IMG/VR virus record: IMGVR_UViG_3300046009_011911
Location: 15,238 to 79,237 of that record
Length of the DNA: 64,000 nucleotides
Source of the DNA: a virus
Strand: one strand, 5' to 3'
Part shown: positions 956-41,274 of the stretch, piece after piece
Layout of the letters: every line of letters starts with the position of its first letter
Position numbering within the stretch: position 1 is the first letter of the stretch
The notes under the pieces: generated by a model
Databases searched by the model: none
Told to the model about the DNA's origin: nothing
The model's input: the letters and a program-made list of their open reading frames with translations, nothing else
Program-made: the position numbers and the translations under genes

Positions 956-1072
956 ACCGTTTTTCTTGATTTTTCGTGAGTTAAGTGCTATTATTGTCAA
1001 ACAATAAAGTAGCATTTATGTCTTAACAATAAAACATATATAAAAACTACACTCTATAAAAAGGAGGTCAAT

Positions 1073-1708
1073 ATGACTACAACTATGAGTTTATCTCATA
1101 CCTCTTATAAAGCAGTGATAAGCAGCATCAAACTGTTAATTTTTGGTTTAGGCCTAAGTTTAACTATTTTTGCAGTGTACGAAATAACTGCGAATAAGTT
1201 ACGTAATTTAAAGCTGGAAGAAACTGTACAAATAGAAAGATTGCACCATGCCATCCTGACAGAGAATTTAAAACAGGCAGAACTAATTAAAGCACAACAA
1301 GCTCATACAGAAAGGTTGAAACAATTAGAATGTTTGGCCAGAAATGTTTATTGGGAAGCAGCATCTGAACCATTTGAAGGTAAAGTGGCAGTAGCGCAAG
1401 TAACCATGAATAGGCTAGAATCAGGTCGTTACGGAAATACTATCTGTCAAGTTGTTTTTCAACGAACAAAAGTATATGAAACTGTAATTTGCCAATTTAG
1501 TTGGACTTGTACTGGTAAATCTAGAGTGCCCCCAAAAAATCTCAGATTATTTAAAGAAAGCGAAGACATTGCCAGAAAAGTTTATTTTGAAAATTATCGA
1601 TTACCGACTATGACGAAAGCCATGTATTTTCATAATACCACTGTTCGACCAGGTTGGAACAAAGTTAAAATTGCGCAAATAGGACAACACGTTTTTTATC
1701 GGGATTGA
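1073..1708 (+). CDS. Cell wall hydrolase, SleB/Hydrolase_2 family, with N-terminal TM helix
   Basis: CLARNVYWEA...GKVAVAQVTMNR, CQFSW and C-terminal IGQHVFY motifs; SD AGGAGG. Confidence 0.9.
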   Translation: MTTTMSLSHTSYKAVISSIKLLIFGLGLSLTIFAVYEITANKLRNLKLEETVQIERLHHAILTENLKQAELIKAQQAHTERLKQLECLARNVYWEAASEPFEGKVAVAQVTMNRLESGRYGNTICQVVFQRTKVYETVICQFSWTCTGKSRVPPKNLRLFKESEDIARKVYFENYRLPTMTKAMYFHNTTVRPGWNKVKIAQIGQHVFYRD

Positions 1709-1712
1709 CATC

Positions 1713-2042
1713 ATGAAATTATCTACTATTAAATTTAGTTTTTTAAGATTTTACTTGTTAGTGAAAAAATTCTTTTTGATTCATTTGCAAAAAATTACCG
1801 CAAATACTTTGGGATGGATGGCTGCAATTGTATTACATGCTGCAACCATTCCCAGTCTTATTGCATTGATGAGCGCATTAACTGATAGATTACCTAATTT
1901 AGAAATGATTTTATTCATTTGGACTGCACTGGTCTTGTTGTTTACCAGAGCTATTATTTTGAAAGATCAGTTAAATATTATTACTATCGGCGCAGGATTC
2001 ATAGCGCAGGCAGTAATGATGGCGTTCATACTTTTTAAATAA
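1713..2042 (+). CDS. Small multi-pass membrane protein
   Basis: Three hydrophobic segments; directly follows the hydrolase. Confidence 0.65.
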   Translation: MKLSTIKFSFLRFYLLVKKFFLIHLQKITANTLGWMAAIVLHAATIPSLIALMSALTDRLPNLEMILFIWTALVLLFTRAIILKDQLNIITIGAGFIAQAVMMAFILFK

Positions 2043-2043
2043 A

Positions 2044-2700
2044 ATGAATTATTTTCAATTATTGTATAATTTGCACAACATCTATCATAAGTTTGATGGT
2101 CAATCAATGGATAGAAATTCTATTTTAAAATGTATAAAACGTAGTATTCCTTTTAAAGAATGTCAAATTTATAGTTTGGAAACACTGAGTTTACCTAACG
2201 GAAAATTTAATGTTTCAGGTTTATATGATCCTGATCAAGATGAACAAGGCAAGCCCCCTATTGTAATCGAAATAGCATTTCCTAAAAAAAGAAATTTTGT
2301 TTTTGATGAATCAGACTTGCGCAGAGAACACTGGGCCGAGCTCTGTATAGATTTAGCAAGCACACTTGGTCATGAGTTTATTCATTTGAACCAATTTAGA
2401 AAACGTAATTATCGTTGGACAAGACAGTATAAAAGTAAAACATCGGATCTCAAACTGAGAGAAATGCAAGAGTATTATGGAGATTCAGATGAAATAGGAG
2501 CCTATGCCTTTATGGCAGCAGCTGAACTGACACTGAATAAAGCGTCAGTGGATGATTTTAATTTGGAAGACACAAATACTTACAAAGTATATGCACAAGT
2601 TTTCGGCGACAAAGACCCCGTTGTACTTAAATTGTCTAAGTTAATAAAACAATATAACAAAAAACTGGAGAAACAATATCATGCCACGAATTTCCAATGA
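2044..2700 (+). CDS. HExxH-motif protein (zincin-like)
   Basis: TLGHEFIHLNQ and downstream DSDEIGAY. Confidence 0.55.
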   Translation: MNYFQLLYNLHNIYHKFDGQSMDRNSILKCIKRSIPFKECQIYSLETLSLPNGKFNVSGLYDPDQDEQGKPPIVIEIAFPKKRNFVFDESDLRREHWAELCIDLASTLGHEFIHLNQFRKRNYRWTRQYKSKTSDLKLREMQEYYGDSDEIGAYAFMAAAELTLNKASVDDFNLEDTNTYKVYAQVFGDKDPVVLKLSKLIKQYNKKLEKQYHATNFQ

Positions 2701-2896
2701 AGTAGAAGATATTAGCGAGGGCGATTTTTTAGACAGTCTAGATGATGACGATTTTGTATTTGTAATAGATGGCGATGGTAATCTAAAATCATTACTAATG
2801 CCTGAGATGGCAGATGAAGAAGCAGTGCCCGAAAACGTTGTTTCTATTCTTAAGTTTTTTGGAATCTCAAAAATGAATCCTGCAACACTACATTAA
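2681..2896 (+). CDS. Acidic hypothetical protein
   Basis: SD GGAG upstream; operon geometry. Confidence 0.65.
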   Translation: MPRISNEVEDISEGDFLDSLDDDDFVFVIDGDGNLKSLLMPEMADEEAVPENVVSILKFFGISKMNPATLH

Positions 2897-2899
2897 CGG

Positions 2900-2928
2900 T
2901 TGACAAATATATTCAATATCTCTATAAT
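2900..2928 (+). promoter_or_regulatory. Sigma70-type early promoter
   Basis: TTGACA(2900)-17 nt-TATAAT(2923). Confidence 0.85.
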
Positions 2929-2957
2929 ATATAGATACTGAACTTTAGGAGCAGCAC

Positions 2958-3161
2958 GTGGGATACCGTGTGTTAGGCGAAATGGAGCGTAAGTGGCAAC
3001 CCCGTAAAGGGCTAGAAGGTCCCTTTTATTACCCCAACGGGCGTGTTTTGTACTATGATGCTAAGGCGGGGGAATATTGGGATCCAACTACAGATTTTTA
3101 CGTAGAACGGGATGAAATTGCTCAGTTGCAGGGCGATTTCATGCGTACTTTGGCCCAATAA
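2958..3161 (+). CDS. Small early hypothetical protein
   Basis: GTG start after AGGAG, behind the promoter. Confidence 0.7.
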   Translation: MGYRVLGEMERKWQPRKGLEGPFYYPNGRVLYYDAKAGEYWDPTTDFYVERDEIAQLQGDFMRTLAQ

Positions 3162-3166
3162 TTTGG

Positions 3167-3200
3167 TTGACAAATATTCCATTATTTCATATAATAATGG
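3167..3200 (+). promoter_or_regulatory. Early promoter with palindrome CCATTATT-N6-AATAATGG
   Basis: TTGACA(3167)-17-TATAAT(3190); palindrome 3179-3200. Confidence 0.85.
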
Positions 3201-3201
3201 T

Positions 3202-3516
3202 ATGATGAAACGTAAAGCACGCCAAGACCGCAAGCACGCCGTGTACATGATCATGAACACGGAGACTGGTGAACACTACATTGGTATTACTGTATGTGGT
3301 CAACAGCTTCGCAATGCCATTAAGGTTCGGTGGCAAAAACATGTCCGTCGTGCGCTGACAGAAGATAAAGATTGGAACCTGTGTCGTAATATTCGCCAAC
3401 ATGGTCCTGACGTTTTTGAAGTTGAAGTTCTCGAAGTTGTTCGTGGTCGCAAACCTGCTCACCAACGTGAGCGTGAATTGATTTCTGAATTGTGTCCCTC
3501 TCTTAATCAATATTAA
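3202..3516 (+). CDS. GIY-YIG family nuclease, probably leaderless
   Basis: AVYMIMNTETGEHYIGIT...RWQKH...ERELI...LN; ATG at 3202 is the 7th base after the -10 box. Confidence 0.75.
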   Translation: MMKRKARQDRKHAVYMIMNTETGEHYIGITVCGQQLRNAIKVRWQKHVRRALTEDKDWNLCRNIRQHGPDVFEVEVLEVVRGRKPAHQRERELISELCPSLNQY

Positions 3517-3531
3517 TTTAAGGAACTGACT

Positions 3532-3681
3532 ATGATGAAAATGGAAAAGACTGACAAAACCATGCTGGGCCCCAACGAATTCGGATTTTATCTGGATGCA
3601 TGGGTTCATTGTTGGAAAAATAAATTCGACATTGGCAGGATCAAACGTAAAAGCTGGGACGTTTGGTTTGTGGAAGCATAA
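3532..3681 (+). CDS. 49-aa hypothetical protein (not in ORF track)
   Basis: MMKMEKTDKT...WFVEA*; SD AAGGA; fills the gap exactly. Confidence 0.6.
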   Translation: MMKMEKTDKTMLGPNEFGFYLDAWVHCWKNKFDIGRIKRKSWDVWFVEA

Positions 3682-3682
3682 C

Positions 3683-3829
3683 ATGCCTTTTATTCTAAGA
3701 GGTATTTTGTACGCTACTTTAGGTTTCCTATTAGCAGAGCAAAATATTACAGTATCACAAGCACCATTAGACTTTGTTTTGATTCTTGGTAATGTAATGC
3801 TCATTGACTATTTTGCAGGCCAATCGTGA
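3683..3829 (+). CDS. Small membrane protein
   Basis: MPFILRGILY..., two hydrophobic stretches. Confidence 0.55.
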   Translation: MPFILRGILYATLGFLLAEQNITVSQAPLDFVLILGNVMLIDYFAGQS

Positions 3830-4215
3830 TATTTGAAGATTCAGAAGATTTCGAAATTTCCAAAACTTATCTATTGAGTTGGGATTGTGAAGGTTTGGAG
3901 TCAGTGGTCTGTATATCAGATATTGCCAAGGAAGAAACTTGGCAAGCTTTAAAAAAGGATCATCAAAAAGAAGACAACTTGTCAGGACGAACTGAAACAG
4001 TAACTTCAATTGTTGGCAAGTTAGTCATGCGGGCTAGATTTAATAGCCATCGTTTTTATGAGATATATGCAATAGATGTAGAAGACGGTATTACATCTGA
4101 TGACATTAGAGACTGGTTCGAATCTGCCCCTCGAGAGATGGCTGATCTAATACGACAGCGTGGTAGAAAACTCTACAGCGATCGCAGAGATAAACGCAGA
4201 ATAAGGATAGAATAA
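3826..4215 (+). CDS. Hypothetical protein
   Basis: GTGA overlap with previous ORF. Confidence 0.65.
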   Translation: MIFEDSEDFEISKTYLLSWDCEGLESVVCISDIAKEETWQALKKDHQKEDNLSGRTETVTSIVGKLVMRARFNSHRFYEIYAIDVEDGITSDDIRDWFESAPREMADLIRQRGRKLYSDRRDKRRIRIE

Positions 4216-4225
4216 ATATTTAATC

Positions 4226-5773
4226 ATGATTTTTGGATTTTTTACTTTAATTGTAGCACTAATTATCAGCGGCATAGCAGCCTATTATAGTATAGCGGGT
4301 TTGACTGCCATTTTTTCTACAGCAGTGGTGCCTATAATTATTATGGGTGCAGCACTAGAAGTGGGAAAAATTACTGCGGCAGTTTGGTTAAAATTAAATT
4401 GGTCCAGGGCCAGTATTACATATAAGCTCTATTTGGTTCCCGCTGTCACTGTTCTAATGTTGTTGACTAGTATGGGAATTTTTGGCTTTTTAAGTAAAGC
4501 CCACAGTGATCAAACATTGATTACTGGCAACAGCAGTGCTCAGATTGCATTGTTTGATGAAAAGATCAAAATACAAAGAGAAAACATTGACACTGCTAGA
4601 CGAGCTCTTGCTCAACTTGATTCCCAAGTCAACGAACGTCTATCACGTGGTACCAGTGAACAAAGCGTTGAAAGAGCTGCCCAACTTCGCAGGCAACAAA
4701 CTGCTGAACGTAATAAACTACTCAAGGATGTTGAATCTGCTCAAAATGAAATACAAAAATTAAATGAAGCTAGGGCACCATTAGCAGCAGAATTAAGAAA
4801 AGTAGAGTCTGAAGTTGGCCCTATAAAATACATCGCTGCATTAATATATGGACCTAATCCCGATGCAGATATATTAGAAAAAGCAGTAAGTTGGATGATA
4901 ATTTTCATTGTGGCAGTATTCGATCCACTGGCTTTGGTTCTTATTTTAGCTGCGCAACAAAGCATTAATTGGAATAGATCTCATAGAAAAAACATTATTG
5001 AACCCTCGCCAGAATTAGATTCCAAACAAGAGTCGGTGGATGATTCGGCTCAAAAAAAAACAGTAGAGAAAACGTCTCAACCTCTTGAAACAGAATTTGA
5101 CATTTCTAAACATGCTTATTTACATAAACCATGGATTCATTTTCCGTCTGGGTTGAAACCTTTAGTTGCCGAAGTGCCAATTGAACCTGTTGCAACGGTG
5201 GTACCGCCAGAAGTTAATACAGTTAAATCTACTACCAAAAAGCGATCTAAAAAAATACTACAGGAAAAACCTGTACTTCCAGTTATTGAACAACCATTGG
5301 TACAAGAAAACACATCTGCTGTGCCTGATGAATCAGTTGAATTTACTGATGATAAAGATGAAGTATTGATAAGCGGAATTAAAATTAAAAAAATAGCTGG
5401 CGGTTATTACGAAGTAAATGATAAACGATACAGCAAATACGTGTTTTACTCAATGTGGCCTGAAGTGGCGAAAAAATACGACAGTATAGTTGATGAATTA
5501 TCAATTCCGCATGTGGAAACTAATTTCGGTAACCAGTTTCCTGTTTATGCAAACAAAGGTGACCTGTTTTTAAGAACTGACAGCGTACCAAATAAACTAC
5601 ACAAATTTAACGGTGTAAAATGGATTGAAGTAGACAAAAACAAAACAGACAGCTATTCTTATGATGATAAGTATATACAGTTCTTAATTGATAAATTACA
5701 ATCAGGTGAATACGAATTAGATCAACTTAGTGCTACTGAACAAGATTTGGTAGCTGCAAAACTTCAAAAATAA
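4226..5773 (+). CDS. Membrane protein with periplasmic coiled coil and long cytoplasmic tail
   Basis: 3 N-terminal TM helices, coiled coil, further TM (AVFDPLALVLILAA); preceded by late motif AATAAATA at 4211. Confidence 0.75.
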   Translation: MIFGFFTLIVALIISGIAAYYSIAGLTAIFSTAVVPIIIMGAALEVGKITAAVWLKLNWSRASITYKLYLVPAVTVLMLLTSMGIFGFLSKAHSDQTLITGNSSAQIALFDEKIKIQRENIDTARRALAQLDSQVNERLSRGTSEQSVERAAQLRRQQTAERNKLLKDVESAQNEIQKLNEARAPLAAELRKVESEVGPIKYIAALIYGPNPDADILEKAVSWMIIFIVAVFDPLALVLILAAQQSINWNRSHRKNIIEPSPELDSKQESVDDSAQKKTVEKTSQPLETEFDISKHAYLHKPWIHFPSGLKPLVAEVPIEPVATVVPPEVNTVKSTTKKRSKKILQEKPVLPVIEQPLVQENTSAVPDESVEFTDDKDEVLISGIKIKKIAGGYYEVNDKRYSKYVFYSMWPEVAKKYDSIVDELSIPHVETNFGNQFPVYANKGDLFLRTDSVPNKLHKFNGVKWIEVDKNKTDSYSYDDKYIQFLIDKLQSGEYELDQLSATEQDLVAAKLQK

Positions 5774-7270: not shown

Positions 7271-7546
7271 ATGCCAAGAATTTTTACTCCACCAGACTGT
7301 GAATTTGACAGGTCAATCAAAAAAATTCTAATTAGGAATTGTGATTGGACCGACGAACAAATTGCTTCTTATATTGATAACCTCAGTGACAAAGTTTATG
7401 ACATTTACATTTACAATGATAGAATGAATGATGTGCAATGGTATGAAGGTATAAGAACGTCTGCAGTAAAAGTTATTGATTATAGAAACTATAAAAATTT
7501 AGATCCAGTTGAATGGTTAAGGACTTTAGATGACATTGTACAATAA
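7271..7546 (+). CDS. Hypothetical protein
   Basis: Operon geometry only. Confidence 0.6.
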   Translation: MPRIFTPPDCEFDRSIKKILIRNCDWTDEQIASYIDNLSDKVYDIYIYNDRMNDVQWYEGIRTSAVKVIDYRNYKNLDPVEWLRTLDDIVQ

Positions 7547-7772
7547 AAACAAAATTATATCGGGAACTACTGTAATTGTAGTAGATGATAATCTTGAGAA
7601 AGCCATGCGTAAATTTAAAAAGAAGGTCGCAGAAAATAATATTTTGCAAGATTTACGTAAAAAAGAATTCTATGAAAAACCCACCATCGCCAGAAAGAAA
7701 GCAGCGGGTGCAGCAAGAAGTAGGTGGCTAAGAAAATTACAATCCGAAGCACTTCCGAAAAAAATGTATTAA
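7530..7772 (+). CDS. rpsU: Ribosomal protein bS21
   Basis: NLEKAMRKFKKK...LQDLRKKEFYEKPTIARKK...AARSR. Confidence 0.9.
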   Translation: MTLYNKNKIISGTTVIVVDDNLEKAMRKFKKKVAENNILQDLRKKEFYEKPTIARKKAAGAARSRWLRKLQSEALPKKMY

Positions 7773-8008
7773 TGTATGTTGAATTTGATTTAACTGATGT
7801 TTACTATCCAACTTTAGAACAAGAAATTCAAAGTTGGAGTCAGCAATATTCAGTGAAATATTATCTTAAAATACACAAACATAAAGCCAAATTAACTTTT
7901 GTGGATGAAAAAAATTATTCTACATTTTGCATGTCGTGGAATCCTACTCTTAGCGACTATTTAAAATACACAATAATTGAACCAATGAAAGTTGACAAGA
8001 CCAAATAA
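7772..8008 (+). CDS. Hypothetical protein (possible distant LRW-family member)
   Basis: TAATG coupling to bS21; ends ...LTFVDEKNYSTFCMSW. Confidence 0.55.
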   Translation: MYVEFDLTDVYYPTLEQEIQSWSQQYSVKYYLKIHKHKAKLTFVDEKNYSTFCMSWNPTLSDYLKYTIIEPMKVDKTK

Positions 8009-8022
8009 ATCCTGTATAAATA
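7992..8022 (+). promoter_or_regulatory. Dual sigma70/late promoter of hsp20
   Basis: TTGACA(7992)-17-TATAAA, where the -10 is part of TATAAATA(8015-8022). Confidence 0.7.
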
Positions 8023-8026
8023 CAAC

Positions 8027-8088
8027 TGTAGTGCCGATAGTCGGGCTACACTATGTCATACTTGCTTAATAGAAAGGAGAATATTATG
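8027..8088 (+). promoter_or_regulatory. ROSE-like RNA thermometer in the hsp20 5' UTR
   Basis: 5' hairpin tgtagtgccga-tag-tcgggctaca; CUUGCUU(8061) pairs with SD AAGGAG with a bulged G. Confidence 0.7.
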
Positions 8089-8529
8089 ACACAATTTGAA
8101 CTTCGCACAATCGATCTTCCTACTTTTGCTCGTCACACAATTGGTTTTGACCGTCTATTCAATGAGATGGGTCGTACTTTTGCCAATAGTCGTAACGACA
8201 ATTATCCACCCTATAATATTGCACAACTAGATGACACACACTATGTGATCGAAGTGGCAGTTGCAGGGTTTGAGGAAGATGAGCTTGACATCGAACTTAA
8301 AGATCAAGTTCTTTTAGTAAAAGGATCCAAGGTTAAAAAAGACACACCAGAAATTACTTACGCCCACAAAGGCATCAGTACAAGAAATTTTGAACGTGTA
8401 TTTACTTTGAATCCCGATGTGCAAGTCCGTGCAGCTACCGTTAAAAACGGTATTTTGGCTGTTGCTTTGGAACTAGTAATTCCAGAAGAGCAGAAAGCCA
8501 AAAAGATTGCAATTACTTACACTAAGTAA
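8086..8529 (+). CDS. hsp20: Small heat shock protein Hsp20 (IbpA-like)
   Basis: IGFDRLF, NYPPYNI, IEVAVAGF, HKGISTRNFERVF, NGILAV; start moved to the ATG after AAGGAG. Confidence 0.95.
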   Translation: MTQFELRTIDLPTFARHTIGFDRLFNEMGRTFANSRNDNYPPYNIAQLDDTHYVIEVAVAGFEEDELDIELKDQVLLVKGSKVKKDTPEITYAHKGISTRNFERVFTLNPDVQVRAATVKNGILAVALELVIPEEQKAKKIAITYTK

Positions 8530-8536
8530 TACAATC

Positions 8537-8562
8537 TTAGGGGGAGCAATCCCCCTAATTTA
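8537..8562 (+). terminator. Hairpin, probable terminator
   Basis: ttaggggga-GCAA-tccccctaa followed by ttt. Confidence 0.65.
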
Positions 8563-8575
8563 ATTTAAGATTAAC

Positions 8576-8890
8576 ATGACATCAATTGCTGAACCCAAGA
8601 CTGTAACTAAAATTAAACCTAAATCAGACATCGCCAAGCCTGTACAATGGCATGTTATCTATATCAATGATGAGGTCACTACTCAAGAATTTGTAATTGA
8701 AACTTTAATCATTGTGTTTAATTATGATAGAGACATGGCAGAAGAAATGACAATGAAGGTACATACCGACGGGTCGGCCATAGTTGCTACACTACCATAC
8801 GAAATGGCAGAACAAAAAGGTGTAGAAGTTACTCTACTAGCACGAAACAATGGTTTTCCATTAGTAGTAAAACTAGAACCAGAGTATTGA
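8576..8890 (+). CDS. clpS: ClpS N-end-rule adaptor
   Basis: VIYINDEVTTQEFVIETL...MKVHTDGSAIV...YEMAEQK...GFPL. Confidence 0.92.
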   Translation: MTSIAEPKTVTKIKPKSDIAKPVQWHVIYINDEVTTQEFVIETLIIVFNYDRDMAEEMTMKVHTDGSAIVATLPYEMAEQKGVEVTLLARNNGFPLVVKLEPEY

Positions 8891-8891
8891 A

Positions 8892-9422
8892 ATGGACATA
8901 ATGTTGGATTTAGAAACTCTGGCAACTAGCCCAGATAGTGTTATCCTTACTTTCGGCGCAGTGAAATTTGATCCCTTTAATACAGAACAAGATTTTGATA
9001 CAGGCCTGTATTACAGAATAGATGTGGATGAACAAATTGCTTTGGGTAGACAAGTCGATCAAGGCACAGTTGACTGGTGGGGCTCTCAAAATGAAGAAGT
9101 GAGAGAAGAAGCACTAGGGGAACATGACAGAATCGGTCTGGAACAGTTTACCCAATCACTGAATAAATTTGTAGTAGGTGCTAATCGAATTTGGGCCCAA
9201 GGTCCAGTGTTTGATATTGTTATTTTAGAAAATTTATACAGGCAATTAGGCAAACCTACTCCATGGCCATACTATTTGATTAGGGATAGTAGAACGTTAC
9301 TTAAAGCATTAGGCGACACTAGATCACCTGGCACTATGCTACATAATGCATTAGCAGATTGTGTAAGCCAAGCACAAGCAATTCAACATGCAGTATCTAA
9401 ATACAAATTAACACAATTATGA
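8892..9422 (+). CDS. 3'-5' exonuclease, DEDDh family
   Basis: IMLDLETL, WAQGPVFD, RDSRT, HNALADC. Confidence 0.85.
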   Translation: MDIMLDLETLATSPDSVILTFGAVKFDPFNTEQDFDTGLYYRIDVDEQIALGRQVDQGTVDWWGSQNEEVREEALGEHDRIGLEQFTQSLNKFVVGANRIWAQGPVFDIVILENLYRQLGKPTPWPYYLIRDSRTLLKALGDTRSPGTMLHNALADCVSQAQAIQHAVSKYKLTQL

Positions 9423-9868
9423 ATAGAACATATTACTTAGCATATGGTATGAACACAAATCTCGATAGCATGAAATCGAGATGTCCTGCCGCCATTAGTT
9501 TAGGCAAAGTCTGGCTAGACGATCACAGATTACAGTTTAAATATTTCTGTGATGCAGAATATCATCCAGGGTCCAAAATGCCTTGTGCACTTTGGTCTAT
9601 CACTGATCGCTGCGAACAAAGTTTAGATAGGTTAGAAGGTTATCCAGATTACTATCTGAAAAAAGAAGTTTCAGTCATCTATGAAAATAAAACAATTAAA
9701 GCTATGATTTATTTTATGCCTGATGGTAATGACGTTCAATTCCCCAGCGAATATTATTTTGACACAGTGGTTACAGGGTATAAACAACATGGTATGACTC
9801 TGGAATCAATACTTAATGCATTAACAGATGTTACAAAGGAATCACAGAATGTTTATAGTATGGGATAA
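9419..9868 (+). CDS. Gamma-glutamylcyclotransferase-like protein
   Basis: YLAYGMNTN...RCP...LDRLEGYPDYY...PSEYY. Confidence 0.85.
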   Translation: MNRTYYLAYGMNTNLDSMKSRCPAAISLGKVWLDDHRLQFKYFCDAEYHPGSKMPCALWSITDRCEQSLDRLEGYPDYYLKKEVSVIYENKTIKAMIYFMPDGNDVQFPSEYYFDTVVTGYKQHGMTLESILNALTDVTKESQNVYSMG

Positions 9869-10148
9869 GAATGTAGTTGAGAAACTACAAAATAATTACA
9901 CTGTTCTAGAACTCGAAACTTTTACTAAAGATCAGACTGAAATCACTGCATATTGTGTGCTCGACGAAGTCAGTGTTGCCGAACTTCCCACGTTAGATAA
10001 TTCTAGACAAATGCATAATGCGTTTATAAACGAATATAAAAAAGGTAATTATAAATTTTGTGTAGATGCAGCAGAATTTTTGCGTGGTAAGTTCAACGGT
10101 GAATTAGATTCATTCTATGATGCTATTTTACAAAAAATTACCAATTAA
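9849..10148 (+). CDS. Stand-alone homolog of the C-terminal part of the CHASE2 adenylate cyclase
   Basis: VLELETF...HNAFINEYKKGNY...LRGKFNGELDSFY resembles cyclase VLELDKI...HDLMLSYYRKKQW...LKGEFDSNMDLYY. Confidence 0.6.
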   Translation: MFIVWDKNVVEKLQNNYTVLELETFTKDQTEITAYCVLDEVSVAELPTLDNSRQMHNAFINEYKKGNYKFCVDAAEFLRGKFNGELDSFYDAILQKITN

Positions 10149-10161
10149 CGTATAAGAAAAC

Positions 10162-10203
10162 TTTTCTTTTCTCTTTTTTAAATAATAAGGAGGAAAGAAA
10201 ATG
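10162..10203 (+). promoter_or_regulatory. RBS-sequestering hairpin with late-promoter motif in the loop
   Basis: 15-bp stem ttttcttttctcttt/aaggaggaaagaaaa (2 G:U); loop contains TTAAATA. Confidence 0.65.
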
Positions 10204-10662
10204 ACTAAACTAGCAATTTCATTAGTTTTTTTCGCTGTCGTAGCTAAGACAGCCTCTTCTGCTCCGCTACCCGATTTTTCTTTTAAAAATCCCAGTTTTA
10301 ATGGCATAGGATATAGTAGCCATGTTCTTACAATAGAAAATCAGGAAGCAGTTAGAAAAAAAGCAGTTGCAGATAAAATTCAAGCAGAATTAGATAAAAT
10401 TAAAACTGCTGAGCAAAACAGCAATATCAATAAATTTTTGAACAATCTCGAGTCAAGGGTCTATGCTCAAATAAGTCAAAATCTTGCAACCGCTATGTTT
10501 AAAGATGGTGGAAGTAATAGTGGTATTTTTACTTTTGACAATGCAACCAATACTCAAATAGCGTGGGAAAAAAATAGCCTTGATGGCACAATCAAATTAA
10601 TTGTAACAGGTCCAGGAGTCAATACCACTGTGGTAGTGCCCTTAGGACAGTTTCAATTTTGA
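10201..10662 (+). CDS. csgF: Curli assembly factor CsgF-like
   Basis: Signal peptide then FSFKNPSFNG (CsgF N-terminal FxFxNPxFxG); adjacent to csgG. Confidence 0.8.
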   Translation: MTKLAISLVFFAVVAKTASSAPLPDFSFKNPSFNGIGYSSHVLTIENQEAVRKKAVADKIQAELDKIKTAEQNSNINKFLNNLESRVYAQISQNLATAMFKDGGSNSGIFTFDNATNTQIAWEKNSLDGTIKLIVTGPGVNTTVVVPLGQFQF

Positions 10663-11471
10663 TTAGACGATATTTTATTTCATTAATTTTACTGCTCACA
10701 TTATCAGGATGTGCTTTGCATCAACGGGCTAACGATTTAGAATATAAGCCTGAAATTACAAAATCAATGATGCAAAGAGAATTAGAAAATGTCCCAGCCC
10801 CTGCCAGCGGAAAACCTGTAAGTGTGGCTGTCTACAGTTTTTTAGATAAAACCGGGCAACGCCGTCCTCAGACTAATGTAGCCAGTTTAAGCACAGCAGT
10901 TACACAAGGTGCTGAAGCTTTTCTCATTAAGGCTTTACAAGATGTTGGTCGTGGCAAATGGTTCGAAGTTGTAGAACGTGTTGGGTTAGACAATATTCAA
11001 AAAGAACGTTTGATAATTAGGCAAATGAGAGAAGCCTATGAAGGCAATAATGCTAAACCCTTAATGCCCATGCAATTTGCAGGAATGATAATAGAAGGCG
11101 GTATAATAGGTTATGATACTAGTACTAAATCTGGAGGTTCAGGTGCAAGATGGTTGGGTATCGGTGCTCAAACGCAATATAGTGAAGACATTGTTACGGT
11201 CAGTCTAAGAGCAGTAAGTGTTAACACGGGAAAAGTCTTAATCACTGTAACAGTTCAAAAAACAATTCTTAGCACAGCAGACAGTATTAATGCATTAAGA
11301 TTTTTTGATTTGGGGACAAAAGCTTTTGAGGCTGAAACCGGATTAACTATAAATGAACCCGGCACTTATGCAGTTAAAACAGCAGTTGAAGCGGCTGTTA
11401 TAGAACTAATAAAAGAAGGTCAACGGAGAGGAGTATGGGATTTCAAAAAAGAAACTAAAGGAACTGATTAA
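10659..11471 (+). CDS. csgG: Curli secretion channel CsgG-like lipoprotein
   Basis: Lipobox LSGC; VAVYSFLDKTGQ, STAVTQGA, WFEVVERVGL, ERLIIR, IEGGIIGYD. Confidence 0.92.
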   Translation: MIRRYFISLILLLTLSGCALHQRANDLEYKPEITKSMMQRELENVPAPASGKPVSVAVYSFLDKTGQRRPQTNVASLSTAVTQGAEAFLIKALQDVGRGKWFEVVERVGLDNIQKERLIIRQMREAYEGNNAKPLMPMQFAGMIIEGGIIGYDTSTKSGGSGARWLGIGAQTQYSEDIVTVSLRAVSVNTGKVLITVTVQKTILSTADSINALRFFDLGTKAFEAETGLTINEPGTYAVKTAVEAAVIELIKEGQRRGVWDFKKETKGTD

Positions 11472-11494
11472 GGAATACAAACTTAATCTTATAA

Positions 11495-12274
11495 ATGATG
11501 ACTAAAAAAATATTAATTACAATTTTGGCTAGTTTAAGTTTAATTAGCTATGCCGCAGACAATACAATTTATATTGATCAAGCGGGAGATAATGCAACTA
11601 TAACCATGTTGCAGGACGGTGCAGGAAATAGAATCAGGGGTATTCAAGGAGTGGGCACAGGCAATACAACTCCTGCAAAATTAACAGGTGATGCTATAAC
11701 CGTAGACGTTCAACAAATTGGTAGTGGTAATGTATTGAATATGGGCATAGTTACTGCAACAGCTAATGGTAGTAGTCCTACTAATATTACCTATGTTCAA
11801 ACAGGTAACAATGCAACTGCTACTTTAAATCTTAATAATTCTGGAGCAGGAACTAATGCCAGTACAAATTTAAATATTACTCAAACTGGGGATGGTGGAA
11901 TAACTGACCTTAACATTTTAGGATCTAACAACACAATGACCAGCGTTCAAAGCGGTGGTAATAATAATGAATTAGTGGCAACTATTAATGCTAATCAAAC
12001 CACCGTTAATATAAGCCAGACTGGCGGTGGTGGCAACGAAACTACATTAAATTTAACTGGAAATAAAGGCACAGTTGACATTACTACAGTTGGAGCTACC
12101 AATACTACCAGTATTACACAAAGCGGGGGAAGTGTATCGGGCCATAATACAACTTTGGATTATACTGGTTCTGGTAACAATACCATTATAAGTCAAACTG
12201 GAACCATTGATACCACAGTTAATATAAAAAGTGTAGGATCCGGAAACGCATTTACAATCACTACTCATAATTGA
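11495..12274 (+). CDS. Curlin-like secreted beta-repeat protein (CsgA/B-like)
   Basis: Signal peptide; repeated Q-x-G-x-x-N strands, N/T/G/Q-rich. Confidence 0.75.
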   Translation: MMTKKILITILASLSLISYAADNTIYIDQAGDNATITMLQDGAGNRIRGIQGVGTGNTTPAKLTGDAITVDVQQIGSGNVLNMGIVTATANGSSPTNITYVQTGNNATATLNLNNSGAGTNASTNLNITQTGDGGITDLNILGSNNTMTSVQSGGNNNELVATINANQTTVNISQTGGGGNETTLNLTGNKGTVDITTVGATNTTSITQSGGSVSGHNTTLDYTGSGNNTIISQTGTIDTTVNIKSVGSGNAFTITTHN

Positions 12275-12281
12275 GGTAAAT

Positions 12282-13388
12282 ATGAAATTATGCAACCTAC
12301 TTGCTTTACCCTTAATGATTACATTTTGGAACTGCAACGCAGGGATAGGGCAAGTTACGGAACAATTGAATACCCCAGCAGTGATACAGAGAAAGGCAGA
12401 GAACCTTCAAGGGATCAAGGGTCAACAGGTGGAAATGTTAGATTCGATTCGAACTCAGCAGGGCAAAGTAGGAATAACATTTGAAGACAACACAAGAGTT
12501 CAAGTTAATGAAAACAGTAAACTTGTAATTGATGATTTTGTATATGATCCAAAAAGCAAGGGCGGTAAGTTAGGGGCCAAAGTCGCATTAGGCACAGTAA
12601 GATATGCCAGTGGACAGATTGCAAAAACTACCCCACAGAATGTTGCATTAAATACTCCTACTGCAACTATTTCAGTTCGCGGCACCGATTTTACTGCCAC
12701 AGTTGAAGAATTTGGGCAAAGCACGGTTATTTTACTACCCAGCTGCCCCGACGACAAACCTACTAGAACGAAAAATGATATTGCAAGTAATTGTATAGTG
12801 GGAGAAATTATAGTCGAAAGTGATGCAGGCACAGTGATACTAAATCAACCATTCCAAGCTACCAGAGTAGAATCAAGATCTGCGGCCCCATCCAGGCCTG
12901 TTATATTAAATTTAAGTGAAGATGCTATCGGTAACATGATAATTTTGAGTCCGCCTAAAGAGTTGAAAGATTCCAGAGAACAACAAAATCTTCAGAAAAG
13001 TTATCTAGATATGGATTTTTTAGCTGCAAACGGTCTAGAAAATGCATTAGATAAAGTACAGATGCAGATATGGCAAGATAAATTAAGTTATACGTTTTTA
13101 GATAATAGCTTTCTAAACAATGTATTTGATATGATAGCAGATTCACTGAATGAAAAATTATTGGATGAAGTGGATACAGTTCTGCCAGATTATCGTAAAA
13201 GTAGCGGAGTTATCGCAGTAAAAGACGATCCGTTTGTCACATTATGTCGTGATAGCGGACAAGACAAACAGTGTGTTACTACACCTATAAACCAAAGTGC
13301 CACATTGACGCAAACACAAGGATCAGTTACTATAAAGAACAGAATTAATCAAGGTACAGGCACTATAATTACATTGATACAAAGATGA
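12282..13388 (+). CDS. FecR-domain secreted/periplasmic protein
   Basis: DSIRT, ITFEDNTRVQVNENSKL, TPTATISVRGTDF. Confidence 0.85.
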   Translation: MKLCNLLALPLMITFWNCNAGIGQVTEQLNTPAVIQRKAENLQGIKGQQVEMLDSIRTQQGKVGITFEDNTRVQVNENSKLVIDDFVYDPKSKGGKLGAKVALGTVRYASGQIAKTTPQNVALNTPTATISVRGTDFTATVEEFGQSTVILLPSCPDDKPTRTKNDIASNCIVGEIIVESDAGTVILNQPFQATRVESRSAAPSRPVILNLSEDAIGNMIILSPPKELKDSREQQNLQKSYLDMDFLAANGLENALDKVQMQIWQDKLSYTFLDNSFLNNVFDMIADSLNEKLLDEVDTVLPDYRKSSGVIAVKDDPFVTLCRDSGQDKQCVTTPINQSATLTQTQGSVTIKNRINQGTGTIITLIQR

Positions 13389-13996
13389 AATTTTTAATAT
13401 TATTTTTATTGCCAGCTATAGCTTTTGCATCCGATAATACCATTTATATCGACCAGATCGGTAACAATAATATTGTAACGATTACTCAAACTGGAAGTTC
13501 TAATACAGTATCTGGAGTGTTAAAACAGGCCTCTTCAGTCCAGGGCGATTCAAATCAAATTTCCATTTCGCAAGATGTTTCTAATCAAATTAAACTAGAT
13601 TTAACCGGCGACTATAATAATATTACAGTTAATCAAACTATTGGTAATATGGCAGAAACTACTGTCATCGGAAACAACAATACACTAAACTTTCAACAAT
13701 TAAATTCTGGTTCTAAATCTATTACTGCGTCTATAACTGGAAACTCAAATCAAATTTCATCTAATCAACAGGGCACCGGGCAACATCAATTAAATGTTTC
13801 ATTAACGGGTAATGGGCACAATGTAACAAGTTTACAAAAAGATTCTGGTAATCACGCTGCTAACATAAATCTTACTAATGCTGGTGGCGCTGCAACAGTA
13901 AATTTGACTCAGCAGGGATCGCTCGGTCAAACTTATTCATTGACACAAAGTTGCAGTATGGTTGGTGGATGTTCAACTTCAATAACACAACAGTAA
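13385..13996 (+). CDS. Second curlin-like beta-repeat protein
   Basis: Signal peptide; mature start SDNTIYIDQIG nearly identical to ADNTIYIDQAG of 11495; QxGxxN repeats. Confidence 0.75.
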   Translation: MKFLILFLLPAIAFASDNTIYIDQIGNNNIVTITQTGSSNTVSGVLKQASSVQGDSNQISISQDVSNQIKLDLTGDYNNITVNQTIGNMAETTVIGNNNTLNFQQLNSGSKSITASITGNSNQISSNQQGTGQHQLNVSLTGNGHNVTSLQKDSGNHAANINLTNAGGAATVNLTQQGSLGQTYSLTQSCSMVGGCSTSITQQ

Positions 13997-14008
13997 TTCA
14001 AAAAAATT

Positions 14009-14827
14009 ATGGAAAATAAAATTCAAGTATTTGGTGGTTTAGGTTTTGTTGGCTCTGAGTTTGTAAAACAAAATCCTGAATGTATAGTAAACGAACGACA
14101 CGACTACACAGTTAAGTCAAACAATATACTTTACTTGATCAGCACCATTAGTAACTACAACATGCTTACTAATCCCTATATTGATATAGACACTAATCTT
14201 ACTACATTGATGCGGGTACTAGAACAATGCAAGAATAACAATGTTACTTTTAATTTTGTAAGCAGTTGGTTTGTGTACGGTGATACCGATATGCCTGCCA
14301 GCGAAACAAGTATCTGCAGGCCCACTGGTTTTTATTCTATTACTAAAAAGGCGGCAGAAGATTTACTAATAACCTATTCCAAAGTTTTCGATATCAAATA
14401 TAGAATTTTAAGATTAGCAAATGTAGTAGGTCCAGGAGATCCTAAAGCTAGTTTAAAGAAAAATGCTTTACAACATCTTATTAATGAATTGAAAGCAAAT
14501 AGAGATATCAATATCTATGACAATGGCAATATGTATAGAGATTATGTGCATGTGGAAGATGTAGCAAGAGCTTTGAAATTAGTAATGGACAAAGGGTTGA
14601 CCAATGAAATATATAACATTGGCAATGGCAAACCTATTAAATTTAAAACTATTATAGACTATGCACATAAAATTCTTGCAAGTTCCAGTAATATGCATAA
14701 TATTGATCCTCCCGAATTTCATAAAATAGTGCAAGTTCATAGTATGTTCATGAATACAGAAAAGTTAAAACAATTGGGTTATAAACCCAAGTTCAACATG
14801 GAACAGATAGTAGAAGATATGATATAA
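14009..14827 (+). CDS. NAD-dependent epimerase/dehydratase
   Basis: GGLGFVG, SSWFVYG, YSITK (YxxxK), RDYVHVEDVA. Confidence 0.9.
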   Translation: MENKIQVFGGLGFVGSEFVKQNPECIVNERHDYTVKSNNILYLISTISNYNMLTNPYIDIDTNLTTLMRVLEQCKNNNVTFNFVSSWFVYGDTDMPASETSICRPTGFYSITKKAAEDLLITYSKVFDIKYRILRLANVVGPGDPKASLKKNALQHLINELKANRDINIYDNGNMYRDYVHVEDVARALKLVMDKGLTNEIYNIGNGKPIKFKTIIDYAHKILASSSNMHNIDPPEFHKIVQVHSMFMNTEKLKQLGYKPKFNMEQIVEDMI

Positions 14828-14830
14828 ATA
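14823..14830 (+). promoter_or_regulatory. T4-type late promoter of the cyclase gene
   Basis: TATAAATA. Confidence 0.65.
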
Positions 14831-14854
14831 TTTTGTCAGCAACTTTAAACAAAT

Positions 14855-16915
14855 ATGAATATTAAAAAAATACTGTTGTCCCCCTGGACAGCTCTACTAA
14901 CTTTAGCTATTATTGTATCTATTAGAATAGCAGATCCCGCTTTTGTTGAATCTGTTAGGTTACGGTATTTTGACAGTTTAATATTAAGTAAACCTGTAAC
15001 TGAAAATAATATCTATACAGTAGATATTGATGAAGCTGCATTAGACAAATATGGCCAATGGCCTTTGCCCAGAGGTATATATGCTGAAATTATTGAGGAT
15101 TTGTATAGAAGGAATGCTGGTCTTGTTGTTTTCAACGTTCTATTGCCTAATGCTGATAGAAGTAATCAAGATAATCGTTTGGTTAAAACATTAGAAAAAC
15201 ACGAAGTCATACTGCCTAGCGTACCCGCAGATAAAACAAGAAATACTCCTCGTAATCCAGGCAGCGTGGTTTTAGGTCCAGAATATTCTGACAGAATCGT
15301 GAACTATCCCGGTATCATTGCCAATATACCAGCCTTAGAACTTGCAGCAGCTGGTATAGGCACAGTCCATACTTTACCTGAAATTGATGGCGTCAATAGA
15401 CGAATGCCATTAATTATAGCTGTAGGAGATCGATTGTATCCTAGTTTATCAATTGAAACTCTTAGGGTAGCCGCAGGTGACACTACTGTTCAAATAAAAC
15501 TAAATGAAAATGGTGTAGAAAAGTTACGGGTTCCTGCATTTGGTCCAGTGACAACAGACAGTCTTGGTCGTATATGGGTAGACTGGCAACAGCAAGCACA
15601 ACAAGTAAGTTTAATGAACCTGCCTGATAATTTTGAAAAAGCAATTGTTGTGGTAGGTGTAACAGCAGCAGGTTTATCTAATCCGGTTCCAACTAGTAAG
15701 GGTGCAGTGTTTCCGCATCATGCGCAGGCAGGAGTTATTGCAACTTTGATAAATCAAGTGGTAATTCAACGCCCCGATTATGCAGATGGATTAGAAATTA
15801 TTGCTATGATTGTGATTGGGTGTGTTATTTTATTTTTAACAAGGAAAATATATGTCGGTTTGGCTTCAGTTATTGTTTTGGTTGTCTCTAGTATTTTGGG
15901 TAGTATCTATGTTTATCAGTCCTTATTATTCCTTATTGACATTACTGCCATTACTGGCAGTACACTATTGGTCAGTCTTCACGCATACGGAATAAAATTT
16001 GTAAGCGAATATTTACAAAAACAACAAATTAAAAAACAGTTTGGAACTTATCTAAGCCCTGCAATGGTTGAGAAACTGCAAAAAAATCCTGAACTGTTAA
16101 CTTTAGGTGGTGAGTCCCGCGAATTAAGTATCATGTTTACTGATGTTAGAGGATTTACCAGTATCAGTGAACATTATGGCAAAGATGTTCAGGGATTAAC
16201 AAAGATTATGAATCGTTACATGACTGCCATGACTGCTAAGATTTTAGATAACCAAGGCACCTTAGACAAATATATCGGGGACGCACAGATGGCTTTTTGG
16301 AACGCACCATTAGATGATGCAGATCATGCCAAGAACGCAGTACGTACAGGTTTAGCTATGATGGGAAGTTTAGATGCATTTAATCGTGAAATTACGGCAG
16401 AAGGCGTACCGCCTTTTGGTATGGGTCTTGGCATTAATACTGACACCGTTGTGGTGGGTAACATGGGAAGTAGTCAGCGTTTTGACTATACTTGCTTGGG
16501 TGACGGCGTCAATTTGGCATCCCGACTGGAGGGCCAGAGTAAACCGTACGGCGTCAAAATCGTACTTGGCCCAAAAACTGCTGAATATGTAAAAGATGAG
16601 TATTTCGTTTTAGAATTAGACAAAATTGCAGTCAAAGGTAAAAAAGAGGGTGTTAATATTTTTACAGTATTGCCTGAAACAGATGCAGGTGCATTGGCTG
16701 AATGGTTATTAGCAAAACAAGAACATGATCTGATGTTATCTTATTATAGGAAAAAACAATGGGATCAGGCTCGCAAATTATCGCAGCAGCTTAAGGGTGA
16801 ATTTGATTCTAATATGGATTTGTATTACGAAAGTTGGATTGAAAGAATCGAAGAAATGAGACAGAAAGAATTACCTGATAACTGGGATGGTACTTATGTG
16901 GCAACATCCAAATAA
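14855..16915 (+). CDS. CHASE2-domain class III adenylate cyclase
   Basis: VDIDEAALDKYGQWPLPR (CHASE2); TM helices; FTDVRGFT, DKYIGDA, DYTCLGDGVNLASRLEG (K/D pair for ATP specificity, catalytic N/R intact). Confidence 0.93.
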   Translation: MNIKKILLSPWTALLTLAIIVSIRIADPAFVESVRLRYFDSLILSKPVTENNIYTVDIDEAALDKYGQWPLPRGIYAEIIEDLYRRNAGLVVFNVLLPNADRSNQDNRLVKTLEKHEVILPSVPADKTRNTPRNPGSVVLGPEYSDRIVNYPGIIANIPALELAAAGIGTVHTLPEIDGVNRRMPLIIAVGDRLYPSLSIETLRVAAGDTTVQIKLNENGVEKLRVPAFGPVTTDSLGRIWVDWQQQAQQVSLMNLPDNFEKAIVVVGVTAAGLSNPVPTSKGAVFPHHAQAGVIATLINQVVIQRPDYADGLEIIAMIVIGCVILFLTRKIYVGLASVIVLVVSSILGSIYVYQSLLFLIDITAITGSTLLVSLHAYGIKFVSEYLQKQQIKKQFGTYLSPAMVEKLQKNPELLTLGGESRELSIMFTDVRGFTSISEHYGKDVQGLTKIMNRYMTAMTAKILDNQGTLDKYIGDAQMAFWNAPLDDADHAKNAVRTGLAMMGSLDAFNREITAEGVPPFGMGLGINTDTVVVGNMGSSQRFDYTCLGDGVNLASRLEGQSKPYGVKIVLGPKTAEYVKDEYFVLELDKIAVKGKKEGVNIFTVLPETDAGALAEWLLAKQEHDLMLSYYRKKQWDQARKLSQQLKGEFDSNMDLYYESWIERIEEMRQKELPDNWDGTYVATSK

Positions 16916-17054
16916 TTATTATAATGCTTGGTTTGACTACTGGATATACTGTAATTTGGTAGCTCAATATTTGCCACTAATGCTGTACACTAGTTATGAT
17001 GAATATTTTAAAACTGTGTGTATGAATGGAATTAAAAATAATACAAAAGTTTAA
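16896..17054 (+). CDS. 52-aa hypothetical protein (not in ORF track)
   Basis: MWQHPNNYYNAWFDYW...KV*; fills the gap to the convergent gene. Confidence 0.4.
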   Translation: MWQHPNNYYNAWFDYWIYCNLVAQYLPLMLYTSYDEYFKTVCMNGIKNNTKV

Positions 17055-17428
17055 CCTTCACCTGCATTAGCAGTTTGTTGATCTTCTTTATCTGGTTTTT
17101 TATCTGCCTTTTTATCTGCGTCCACTATAGCTTTTTTAAACTTACGATCCGCTTCATTATCGACTTTAACTGCTTCTAAAACACGTTCACTTTCTATAAT
17201 TTTACCTCTGAGATGAAGAACTGTGTTGACCTTCTGTTGCATTCTAATTAAATCATTATCTAACATTCTTATGCGATCAATTAAGGCAATAAGTGTAGTG
17301 TTAGCTTCACTAAGTACAGGCTTTATTTCTTTAGTAGCCCATTCCCAAACATAATATATCAAATACCCCATTCCTGCGGCTGCTACAATGGGGAATCCGT
17401 ATTTGTTTATTAATTCAACTACATCCAC
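17051..17428 (-). CDS. Single-TM coiled-coil protein with GFPI motif (YvrJ-like)
   Basis: LINKYGFPIVAA...ALIDRIRMLDNDLIR. Confidence 0.65.
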   Translation of the reverse strand: MDVVELINKYGFPIVAAAGMGYLIYYVWEWATKEIKPVLSEANTTLIALIDRIRMLDNDLIRMQQKVNTVLHLRGKIIESERVLEAVKVDNEADRKFKKAIVDADKKADKKPDKEDQQTANAGEG

Positions 17429-17609
17429 AACTATGCCCTTCCATTAAAAATTGTAACATAGGGTCTACTTTTTTCAACACAAGTTTGCCGTCATGTTCAA
17501 TCATTTGCCAATAATCCCCCGACTTCCATTCTAATTTGTTTGTATTGATTTCACAGTCTGGTATAATTACAGTAGGGCTTAGATCCCAAATATAGTCTAC
17601 ATACAGCAT
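17415..17609 (-). CDS. Small AbrB/MazE-like protein
   Basis: KLEWKSGD...IEHDGKLVLKKV. Confidence 0.45.
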   Translation of the reverse strand: MLYVDYIWDLSPTVIIPDCEINTNKLEWKSGDYWQMIEHDGKLVLKKVDPMLQFLMEGHSCGCS

Positions 17610-40976: not shown

Positions 40977-41274
40977 ATTTGACTGAGTTTTTTAATTCGT
41001 CGTAGATTTTTACAATGTTTAATTGACTGGGATCGGATAGTCGATCTGAAGGCACTGGCAATTGCTGCCATTCTTCTTCAGACAGATCACAGGCAATAAA
41101 AAGTTCGTATTCGTGACCATCACTGGTGTAGAAAGTTACAGTCTCCATTCCAATTACACTGCGTGATGCTGATTCAGCTGCCCGAGCCAGATCCCGTAGT
41201 GCCTGAGGTTCCGCCACAATGTAAGCTCTTGTTTTAGGACCTTTATTGGAATGGAGATGTAATCTTGTTTTCAT
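40975..41274 (-). CDS. Hypothetical protein coupled to dnaE
   Basis: ATGA overlap with the DnaE stop. Confidence 0.6.
   Translation of the reverse strand: MKTRLHLHSNKGPKTRAYIVAEPQALRDLARAAESASRSVIGMETVTFYTSDGHEYELFIACDLSEEEWQQLPVPSDRLSDPSQLNIVKIYDELKNSVK

Follow-up and report, generated by a model that had tools for sequence, protein, structure and literature searches.

The 64,000-nucleotide stretch of viral DNA analysed here (the window; part of the 79-kb IMG/VR record IMGVR_UViG_3300046009_011911, rated 23% complete) carries a curli-type export apparatus encoded in one run with a FecR-fold protein and a CHASE2 adenylate cyclase. This viral curli block is real and tightly conserved. It is a member of the published viral type VIII secretion system (T8SS) regions, carried here by a jumbo T4-like phage. 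We propose that it works as two coupled units in the envelope of the infected cell, a reading to which we assign about an even chance of being correct. The original prediction, drawn from the sequence alone, had presented a novel candidate system; in fact, the block had already appeared in print in 2022, FecR and cyclase included (PMC9599517). The picture obtained here is sharper in that the block is placed in jumbo T4-like phages, its FecR-cyclase half is recognized as a recurrent bacterial sensor pair, and a copy of the whole block is found on cellular contigs.

Organization of the curli block

Seven co-oriented open reading frames (ORFs), abutting or overlapping, occupy positions 10201-16915 of the + strand, as established from ORF coordinates and a Pfam hidden Markov model (HMM) search (Table 1). 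They encode, in this order, CsgF, CsgG, curlin 1, the FecR-fold protein, curlin 2, an epimerase and a CHASE2 class IIIb adenylate cyclase, which is the run that the original prediction had described. Hydropathy and N-terminal sequences reveal envelope-type N-termini throughout the exported set, with signal peptides on CsgF, both curlins and the FecR-fold protein and a lipobox on CsgG. The remark that no CsgE is visible was likewise confirmed: a search with PF10627 returned no match at E≤0.1 in the record containing the window, two complete relatives, Melnitz and HTVC008M, and the E. coli control was positive.

Table 1. Features in and immediately upstream of the curli block, with positions in the window.
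Feature	Position	Strand	Description and evidence
Cyclase-tail paralogue	9828-10148	+	106 aa, small, cytoplasmic; BLASTP against cyclase residues 569-665, E 2e-9
TTTAAATA	10178-10185	+	Putative T4 late-promoter-like motif with one mismatch, just upstream of the csgF Shine-Dalgarno sequence
csgF	10201-10662	+	Secreted curli-channel adaptor/cap; Pfam CsgF 5.8e-10; phrog_35372 6e-46
csgG	10659-11471	+	Pfam CsgG 6.4e-50
Curlin 1	11495-12274	+	Curlin-repeat subunit in CsgB-like position; mature N-terminus DNTIYIDQAG
FecR-fold protein	12282-13388	+	Exported, 368 aa; Pfam FecR 4.1e-10
Curlin 2	13385-13996	+	Curlin-repeat subunit, CsgA-like; Pfam Curlin_rpt 4.4e-5; mature N-terminus DNTIYIDQIG
Epimerase	14009-14827	+	Short NAD-dependent nucleotide-sugar epimerase/dehydratase; Pfam Epimerase 6.7e-32
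TATAAATA	14823-14830	+	Exact match to the T4 late-promoter consensus; 25 nt separate it from the cyclase ATG
Adenylate cyclase	14855-16915	+	CHASE2 class IIIb adenylate cyclase; Pfam CHASE2 8.4e-36, Guanylate_cyc 1.3e-18; phrog_35576 2.4e-235

Conservation among viral relatives

A scan with the FecR protein identified 325 viral relatives, and 80 loci (L004-L083) were analysed. The order csgF-csgG-curlin-FecR-curlin is kept in all 80. Genes for CsgG and curlin 1 were found in every locus, csgF in 79 and curlin 2 in 72; in seven of the eight loci without curlin 2 the contig ends at most ~240 bases after the FecR gene, the exception being L067. The stop codon of the FecR gene overlaps the start of curlin 2 in 66 of the 72 loci that possess both. 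The cyclase was detected in 58 loci, at a distance of 0-4.6 kb from curlin 2. Among the 22 loci in which it was not detected, 17 have less than ~4 kb of sequence after curlin 2 (or after FecR where curlin 2 is missing), and in the other five 4.1-6.6 kb of sequence follows. Five records, only one of which (G002) is a complete genome, were checked in full: G002 encodes the cyclase 15 kb downstream of the block, the 12.5-kb fragment G006 holds the first 35 cyclase residues at its contig end, and the other three fragments gave no cyclase match. In essentially all relatives with enough sequence, csgF, csgG and the curlins are accompanied by FecR and the cyclase, and a lack of such co-occurrence, which the original prediction had named as grounds for abandoning it, was not observed. 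In the window itself, the FecR and cyclase genes belong to one co-oriented run and lie 1.5 kb apart, and they are linked in relatives as well.

Among the module-bearing relatives there are complete genomes (357 kb and 329 kb) that encode the T4 capsid protein Gp23, and on this genomic evidence the carrier phage is a member of a jumbo T4-like lineage. Those relatives that have been binned into metagenome-assembled genomes (MAGs) bear lake and pond sample names.

Export pore and curlins

The csgF product combines a hydrophobic N-terminus of signal-peptide type with an N-terminal FxFxNPxFxG motif. CsgG matches the solved E. coli channel over its full length (3x2r/4q79; 6.3e-50, residues 4-265), and its lipobox reads LSGC. 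The positions aligned to Y51, N55 and F56 of the E. coli protein are occupied by Q, S and L, respectively, and the loop contains a one-residue insertion.

No Pfam hit was obtained for curlin 1; the profile of its family (32 members) matches solved curlins (8c50, 1.6e-26; E. coli CsgA 8enq, 1.2e-7). As the original prediction had noticed, both mature curlin chains start with DNTIYIDQxG. This motif is present in 81 of 82 curlin-1 homologues and is looser in curlin 2. The two subunits also differ in the constancy of their length: curlin 1 is nearly constant (189-365 aa, mostly 259-330), whereas in curlin 2 repeat expansion makes for lengths of 186 to 852 aa among related phages, which fits CsgB-like and CsgA-like roles, respectively.

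The FecR-fold protein

The FecR-fold protein consists of a 21-residue signal-peptide-like segment, a FecR/PupR-type β domain (residues ~23-200), a low-confidence helical linker and a C-terminal domain (305-368), the last of which is compact and six-stranded in the AlphaFold2 model (predicted local distance difference test score, pLDDT, 72). Structural matches to the FecR domain include PupR (6ovm, Z 15.8) and BDI_1681 (4m0h, Z 14.6). A fold search with the C-terminal domain produced only immunoglobulin-like matches (Z~3.5). The Foldseek hit 5ix9 ('cell surface anchoring domain') was considered as a counterpart of the C-terminal domain and rejected, because its alignment falls on residues 19-91, inside the FecR region.

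According to the original prediction, this protein ends in curlin-like strands and by means of them caps or docks on the fibre. The C-terminal peptide that it quoted is present and, in the alignment, strongly conserved across the family, but every test of curlin similarity failed. Comparison of the FecR profile with that of curlin 1 by hhalign gave only a 5%-probability match, located elsewhere in the FecR protein; the FecR proteins score no better than shuffled sequences against a curlin-repeat HMM; their median score against an HMM of the curlin N-terminal segment is -2.4, a value reached by 14% of unrelated ORFs; and Pfam, even at E≤10, found no Curlin_rpt match in any of 45 FecR family members. 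Profile comparison, two curlin HMMs and a lax Pfam search thus agree in rejecting the curlin-like assignment. Two cysteines of the C-terminal domain covary across the family, being either both present or both missing, which points to a disulfide bond, as in a folded domain of an exported protein. Taken with the model, this covariation suggests that the C-terminus is a folded, disulfide-bonded six-strand β-domain, and the proposed docking through curlin-like strands is not supported.

The CHASE2 adenylate cyclase

From hydropathy, the cyclase is laid out as an N-terminal transmembrane segment, a periplasmic CHASE2 domain (residues ~30-308), a transmembrane cluster (308-376), a cytoplasmic cyclase domain and a helical tail. 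Its motifs FTD, DKYIGD, DYT and VNLASRLE could be aligned to CyaB of P. aeruginosa (3r5g), Spirulina CyaC and related chains. In this alignment the two metal-binding aspartates, the substrate lysine, the threonine characteristic of class IIIb and the transition-state asparagine and arginine are all intact, and the earlier statement that the metal-binding, catalytic and ATP-specificity residues are preserved is borne out by comparison with 3r5g. The Cya2 chain 2w01, aligned alongside, has E and G at the two specificity positions. Residues 371-670 of the phage protein, comprising the catalytic domain and the tail, are 43.5% identical to CyaK of Sinorhizobium meliloti.

In two relatives (L073 and L076, 11270-14233) an insert of ~930 bp interrupts the cyclase gene, leaving its CHASE2 and cyclase parts in separate ORFs. 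The insert holds two small ORFs of 83 and 223 aa and may be of the homing-endonuclease type; an Rfam search of the L073 insert returned no intron or other match.

FecR-CHASE2 pairs in bacteria

On the S. meliloti replicon pSymB, the gene immediately upstream of cyaK, which itself encodes a CHASE2 cyclase, specifies a protein with a FecR domain, tetratricopeptide repeats (TPRs) and an outer-membrane barrel. This gene is nsrA, and it is required for CyaK-dependent cyclic AMP (cAMP) signalling (PMC7529298, PMC13001267); dependence of a cyclase on a FecR-domain partner has been reported only for NsrA-CyaK (PMC7529298). In Thalassospira and other bacteria without curli genes, too, a FecR gene is found immediately before that of a CHASE2 cyclase. 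In a sample of 101 evenly drawn Alphaproteobacteria, 43 encode a CHASE2 protein; the 20 best CHASE2-cyclase loci were inspected, and a FecR-domain ORF lies within ~6 kb in seven of them, csgG or csgF in none. Pairs of FecR and CHASE2 cyclase are common in Alphaproteobacteria. Elsewhere, clustering of FecR with CHASE2 has been noted in Campylobacterota (PMC9239204) and, with CHASE2 kinases, in Burkholderia (PMC5192318). These pairs, NsrA-CyaK among them, support a relay from FecR to the cyclase. The coupling of FecR to cAMP that the original prediction had put forward consequently survives in one half, the relay, for which NsrA-CyaK is a precedent, and not in the other, the attachment to the fibre.

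Two Caulobacteraceae MAG contigs carry csgF, csgG, two curlin genes, FecR and a CHASE2 cyclase in this order (L093, 5040-11097; L094, 5065-11085), and the GC content of the block is 52%. In L094, the contig whose flanks were scanned, ordinary bacterial genes follow downstream (TetR, amidohydrolase, acyl-CoA dehydrogenase, DsbA), and a Metallophos phosphoesterase, possibly a cAMP phosphodiesterase, is encoded just upstream of csgF. The other matches labelled as MAGs have 34-42% GC and look like mis-binned phage contigs. The Caulobacteraceae blocks bear on the published statement that FecR and a cyclase are not part of bacterial T8SS operons.

Pelagibacteraceae (SAR11) genomes (L102-L112) encode FecR-domain proteins of their own, 33-38% identical to the phage FecR domain, and in L112 a CHASE2 protein is encoded ~1.4 kb upstream of the FecR-domain gene. 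The hosts of the marine versions may thus already possess an equivalent of the sensor pair themselves.

Proposed mechanism and alternative explanations

In the two-unit reading, the phage would install both units in the envelope of an infected Gram-negative cell. The first would be made of the CsgG lipoprotein channel and its CsgF adaptor, which would export two curlin-repeat proteins delivered by Sec; this cargo, a CsgB-like curlin of constant length and a CsgA-like curlin with a variable number of repeats, would assemble into a β-solenoid fibre on the cell surface. The second would be an envelope sensor of the NsrA/CyaK type, in which the exported FecR-fold protein would act in the periplasm on the CHASE2 domain and, through this action on the inner-membrane cyclase, set the rate of cytoplasmic cAMP synthesis. 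The sequences themselves establish the identities of the genes, their export signals, the intact catalytic residues, the strict synteny and the stop/start overlap of FecR with curlin 2. Formation of the fibre, contact between FecR and CHASE2, and coupling of the state of the fibre or pore to cyclase activity are the steps that we infer.

Several observations weigh against this reading. All three constriction residues of E. coli CsgG are replaced in the phage protein, and its transport properties may differ. Since the C-terminal domain of the FecR-fold protein has no detectable resemblance to curlins or to any solved fold, nothing ties it physically to the fibre. The cyclase gene lies up to 15 kb away or on the opposite strand in some relatives, so its co-transcription with the pore genes is not obligatory. 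Cells infected with Melnitz were not seen to clump in the study by Buchholz et al. (PMC9004378). As to the output pathway, a phage-encoded cAMP receptor was considered and rejected, as no cyclic nucleotide monophosphate (cNMP)-binding protein is encoded in five phage genomes; the cAMP would therefore have to act on host receptors.

The main competing view is that of a fibre-only device for adhesion or exclusion, with a curli coat that promotes aggregation ('sibling capture', as proposed by Zaragoza-Solas 2020, PMC7029224) or blocks superinfection, and with FecR and the cyclase merely tuning host physiology or expression without sensing fibre or pore. This is how both the latter study and Wittmers 2022 (PMC9599517) read the system, and it agrees with the curlins being bona fide curlin homologues and with the variation in repeat number that spreads curlin 2 over 186-852 aa, the sort of variation that diversifying pressure on a fibre exposed at the surface should produce. 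It leaves unexplained, however, why FecR is encoded between the curlin genes with a stop/start overlap in 66 of 72 loci and why the cyclase gene persists in practically every relative, and the absence of clumping in Melnitz counts against it as well; we consider it possible but doubtful. A reading that goes beyond ours makes the FecR-fold protein the physical coupler, whose C-terminal domain would bind the CsgG/CsgF pore or nascent curlin and whose FecR domain would gate the CHASE2 cyclase, the whole operon being an old bacterial 'curli-coupled cAMP sensor', as in the Caulobacteraceae MAGs, captured whole by several phage lineages. We regard this as unlikely; if it holds, fibre export or surface contact would be read out as the cAMP level of the infected cell.

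For Melnitz, Buchholz 2022 (PMC9004378) proposed a lysis-timing pore, and the block could more generally be a pore and not a fibre, with CsgG/CsgF as an outer-membrane conduit for solute uptake or gated lysis timing and the curlin-like proteins as non-polymerising plugs or accessory parts. The missing CsgE gate, the constriction residues that differ from those of E. coli and the T4-late-like motifs upstream of csgF and the cyclase are all compatible with such a pore. We nevertheless hold it to be improbable: two many-repeat curlin genes are conserved across loci, one of them matching solved curli fibres; the Melnitz paper assumed curlins to be absent, yet they are annotated and detected in Melnitz; and a pore by itself would have no use for FecR or a cyclase. 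Comparably little credence is due to the idea that FecR is a chaperone or adaptor replacing CsgE/CsgC, which would prevent the curlins from polymerising in the periplasm and hand them on to CsgG; the cyclase would then be an independent, linked gene for host reprogramming. CsgE is indeed not found, the FecR gene has a curlin gene on either side and is translationally coupled to the second of them, and the conserved N-terminal segment common to both curlins could be a recognition tag; but FecR-domain genes pair with CHASE2 cyclases in bacteria without any curli genes, which argues that the link between FecR and the cyclase predates the link to curli and is independent of it.

The relay from FecR to the cyclase that forms part of the two-unit reading is testable in cultured systems, namely Melnitz with its OM43 host, HTVC008M with SAR11, and S. 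meliloti. The window alone makes the function of the module no more testable than the cultured Melnitz and HTVC008M already do.

Transcription signals

Late-promoter motifs had been claimed before both csgF and the cyclase. The exact T4 consensus does precede the cyclase, whereas before csgF there is only the one-mismatch variant, and the count of TATAAATA over the whole window (6 against 7.1 expected) is not above chance. Among the relatives, TAAATA occurs upstream of csgF in 56 of 65 non-identical sequences, compared with 10% of random windows; upstream of the cyclase, NATAAATA is found in 11 of 50 relatives against a background of 2.8%, and TAAATA in 28 of 50. A scan of positions 7500-17600 for sigma-70 promoters and terminators gave promoter-like sites at chance frequency and no + strand terminator inside the block.

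In many relatives (L013, L014, L017, L024, L032, L033, L037) the start codon of the cyclase lies in the 3' arm of a short hairpin with TAAATA in its loop. The stems, within ~30 nt around the cyclase start, differ and yet stay complementary (CAGCAT/ATGCTG, CCAG/CTGG, TCAGTT/AACTGA, TCAA/TTGA), an arrangement reminiscent of the way in which T4 gates late genes on read-through RNA.

Accessory and neighbouring genes

The epimerase is found between curlin 2 and the cyclase in only 5 of the 80 loci, the others having different contents there, and it is therefore best regarded as variable cargo outside the core. Upstream of csgF, the window encodes a stand-alone protein of 106 aa that corresponds to the last β-hairpin of the cyclase fold plus the helical tail. 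It aligns with the cyclase tails, sharing with them an invariant histidine and an invariant tyrosine, has no signal peptide, and is modelled by AlphaFold2 as a hairpin and four helices (pLDDT 85). A fold search with the whole model found nothing significant, only a local match of 39 columns to a mammalian cyclase C2 domain. The gene is present in 22 of the 80 loci and in the complete genome G002, and its product could be a regulator or a decoy of the cyclase.

Genes for a small heat-shock protein (hsp20) and clpS, at 8053-8890 in the window, occur a few kb upstream of csgF in about 61-62 of the 80 loci and are not upstream of the block in HTVC008M or Melnitz; they may reflect synteny within the lineage, or else connect proteostasis with amyloid export. 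In a 212-kb relative (L018), genes for a heme oxygenase, a ferredoxin-dependent bilin reductase and a Bax1-I family membrane protein lie directly upstream of csgF (541-5085), and a D-Ala-D-Ala carboxypeptidase and a fatty-acid desaturase are encoded downstream of the cyclase (14244-15687).

Farther along the window, a DnaE-type DNA polymerase III alpha-like gene (41271-42941, - strand) has its best phage match, at 37% identity, in a 484-kb uncultured phage. An affiliation with such non-T4 huge phages was considered and dropped, given that the module-carrying relatives have T4 Gp23 and lack this polymerase: four of the five related jumbo records searched have no copy of it, and in the fifth there is only a marginal match of 74 residues (E 8.8e-4).

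Comparison with known systems

The closest known systems are the viral T8SS regions that Wittmers 2022 (PMC9599517) described in pelagiphage myo- and podoviruses, with FecR, a second curlin, an adenylate cyclase and no CsgE, and for which that study reported an ocean-wide distribution and detection in metatranscriptomes; viral curli regions are plentiful in viromes from aquatic habitats, making up ~0.1% of the assembled viral proteins in GOV2.0 (PMC9599517). The window has the complete set of features (csgF-csgG, curlins, FecR, second curlin, cyclase, no CsgE), and its gene order is that of HTVC008M (NC_020484 gp014-019) and Melnitz (MZ577097 genes 99-104), both likewise of T4-like background. 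There are also differences. Protein identity of the cyclase to the published pelagiphage and Melnitz copies is only ~38-40%; genomes of the window's lineage measure 329-357 kb, those of pelagimyophages 132-164 kb; and published freshwater pelagimyophages were reported without the operon, whereas the MAG-binned relatives of the window bear lake or pond names. The window further adds the epimerase before the cyclase and the stand-alone cyclase-tail copy upstream, its relatives add hsp20-clpS upstream (about 61-62 of 80 loci), and the histidine kinase of the podovirus version is not part of its block.

With the E. coli curli system (csgBAC-csgDEFG) the window shares a full-length CsgG, CsgF and curlin repeats matching CsgA fibres. 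It differs in lacking CsgE, CsgD and CsgC, in the CsgG constriction (Q/S/L in place of Y51/N55/F56), in having a single co-oriented run that includes FecR and the cyclase, and in its more numerous and variable curlin repeats.

Like the FecR/PupR anti-sigma regulators, the phage FecR-fold protein has a periplasmic FecR-type β fold (PupR, Z 15.8). Unlike them, it has a signal peptide in place of a cytoplasmic anti-sigma domain and membrane anchor, no STN-like C-terminal subdomain is recognised in it, and neither an extracytoplasmic function (ECF) sigma factor nor a TonB-dependent transducer is encoded nearby; an iron-sensing role is therefore unsupported. FecR was read as an iron regulator in PMC9599517, where CHASE2, NsrA and Sinorhizobium are never mentioned, and this reading can now be replaced by a testable one, that of an exported partner of a CHASE2 receptor.

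That role is modelled on NsrA-CyaK. NsrA is much larger, with 1190 aa including TPRs and an outer-membrane barrel, compared with the 368 aa, small C-terminal β domain and absence of a barrel in the phage protein; S. meliloti has no curli genes near nsrA-cyaK, and in the window a curlin gene and the epimerase separate the FecR gene from the cyclase. What the two systems have in common is a FecR-domain envelope protein encoded together with a CHASE2 class III cyclase.

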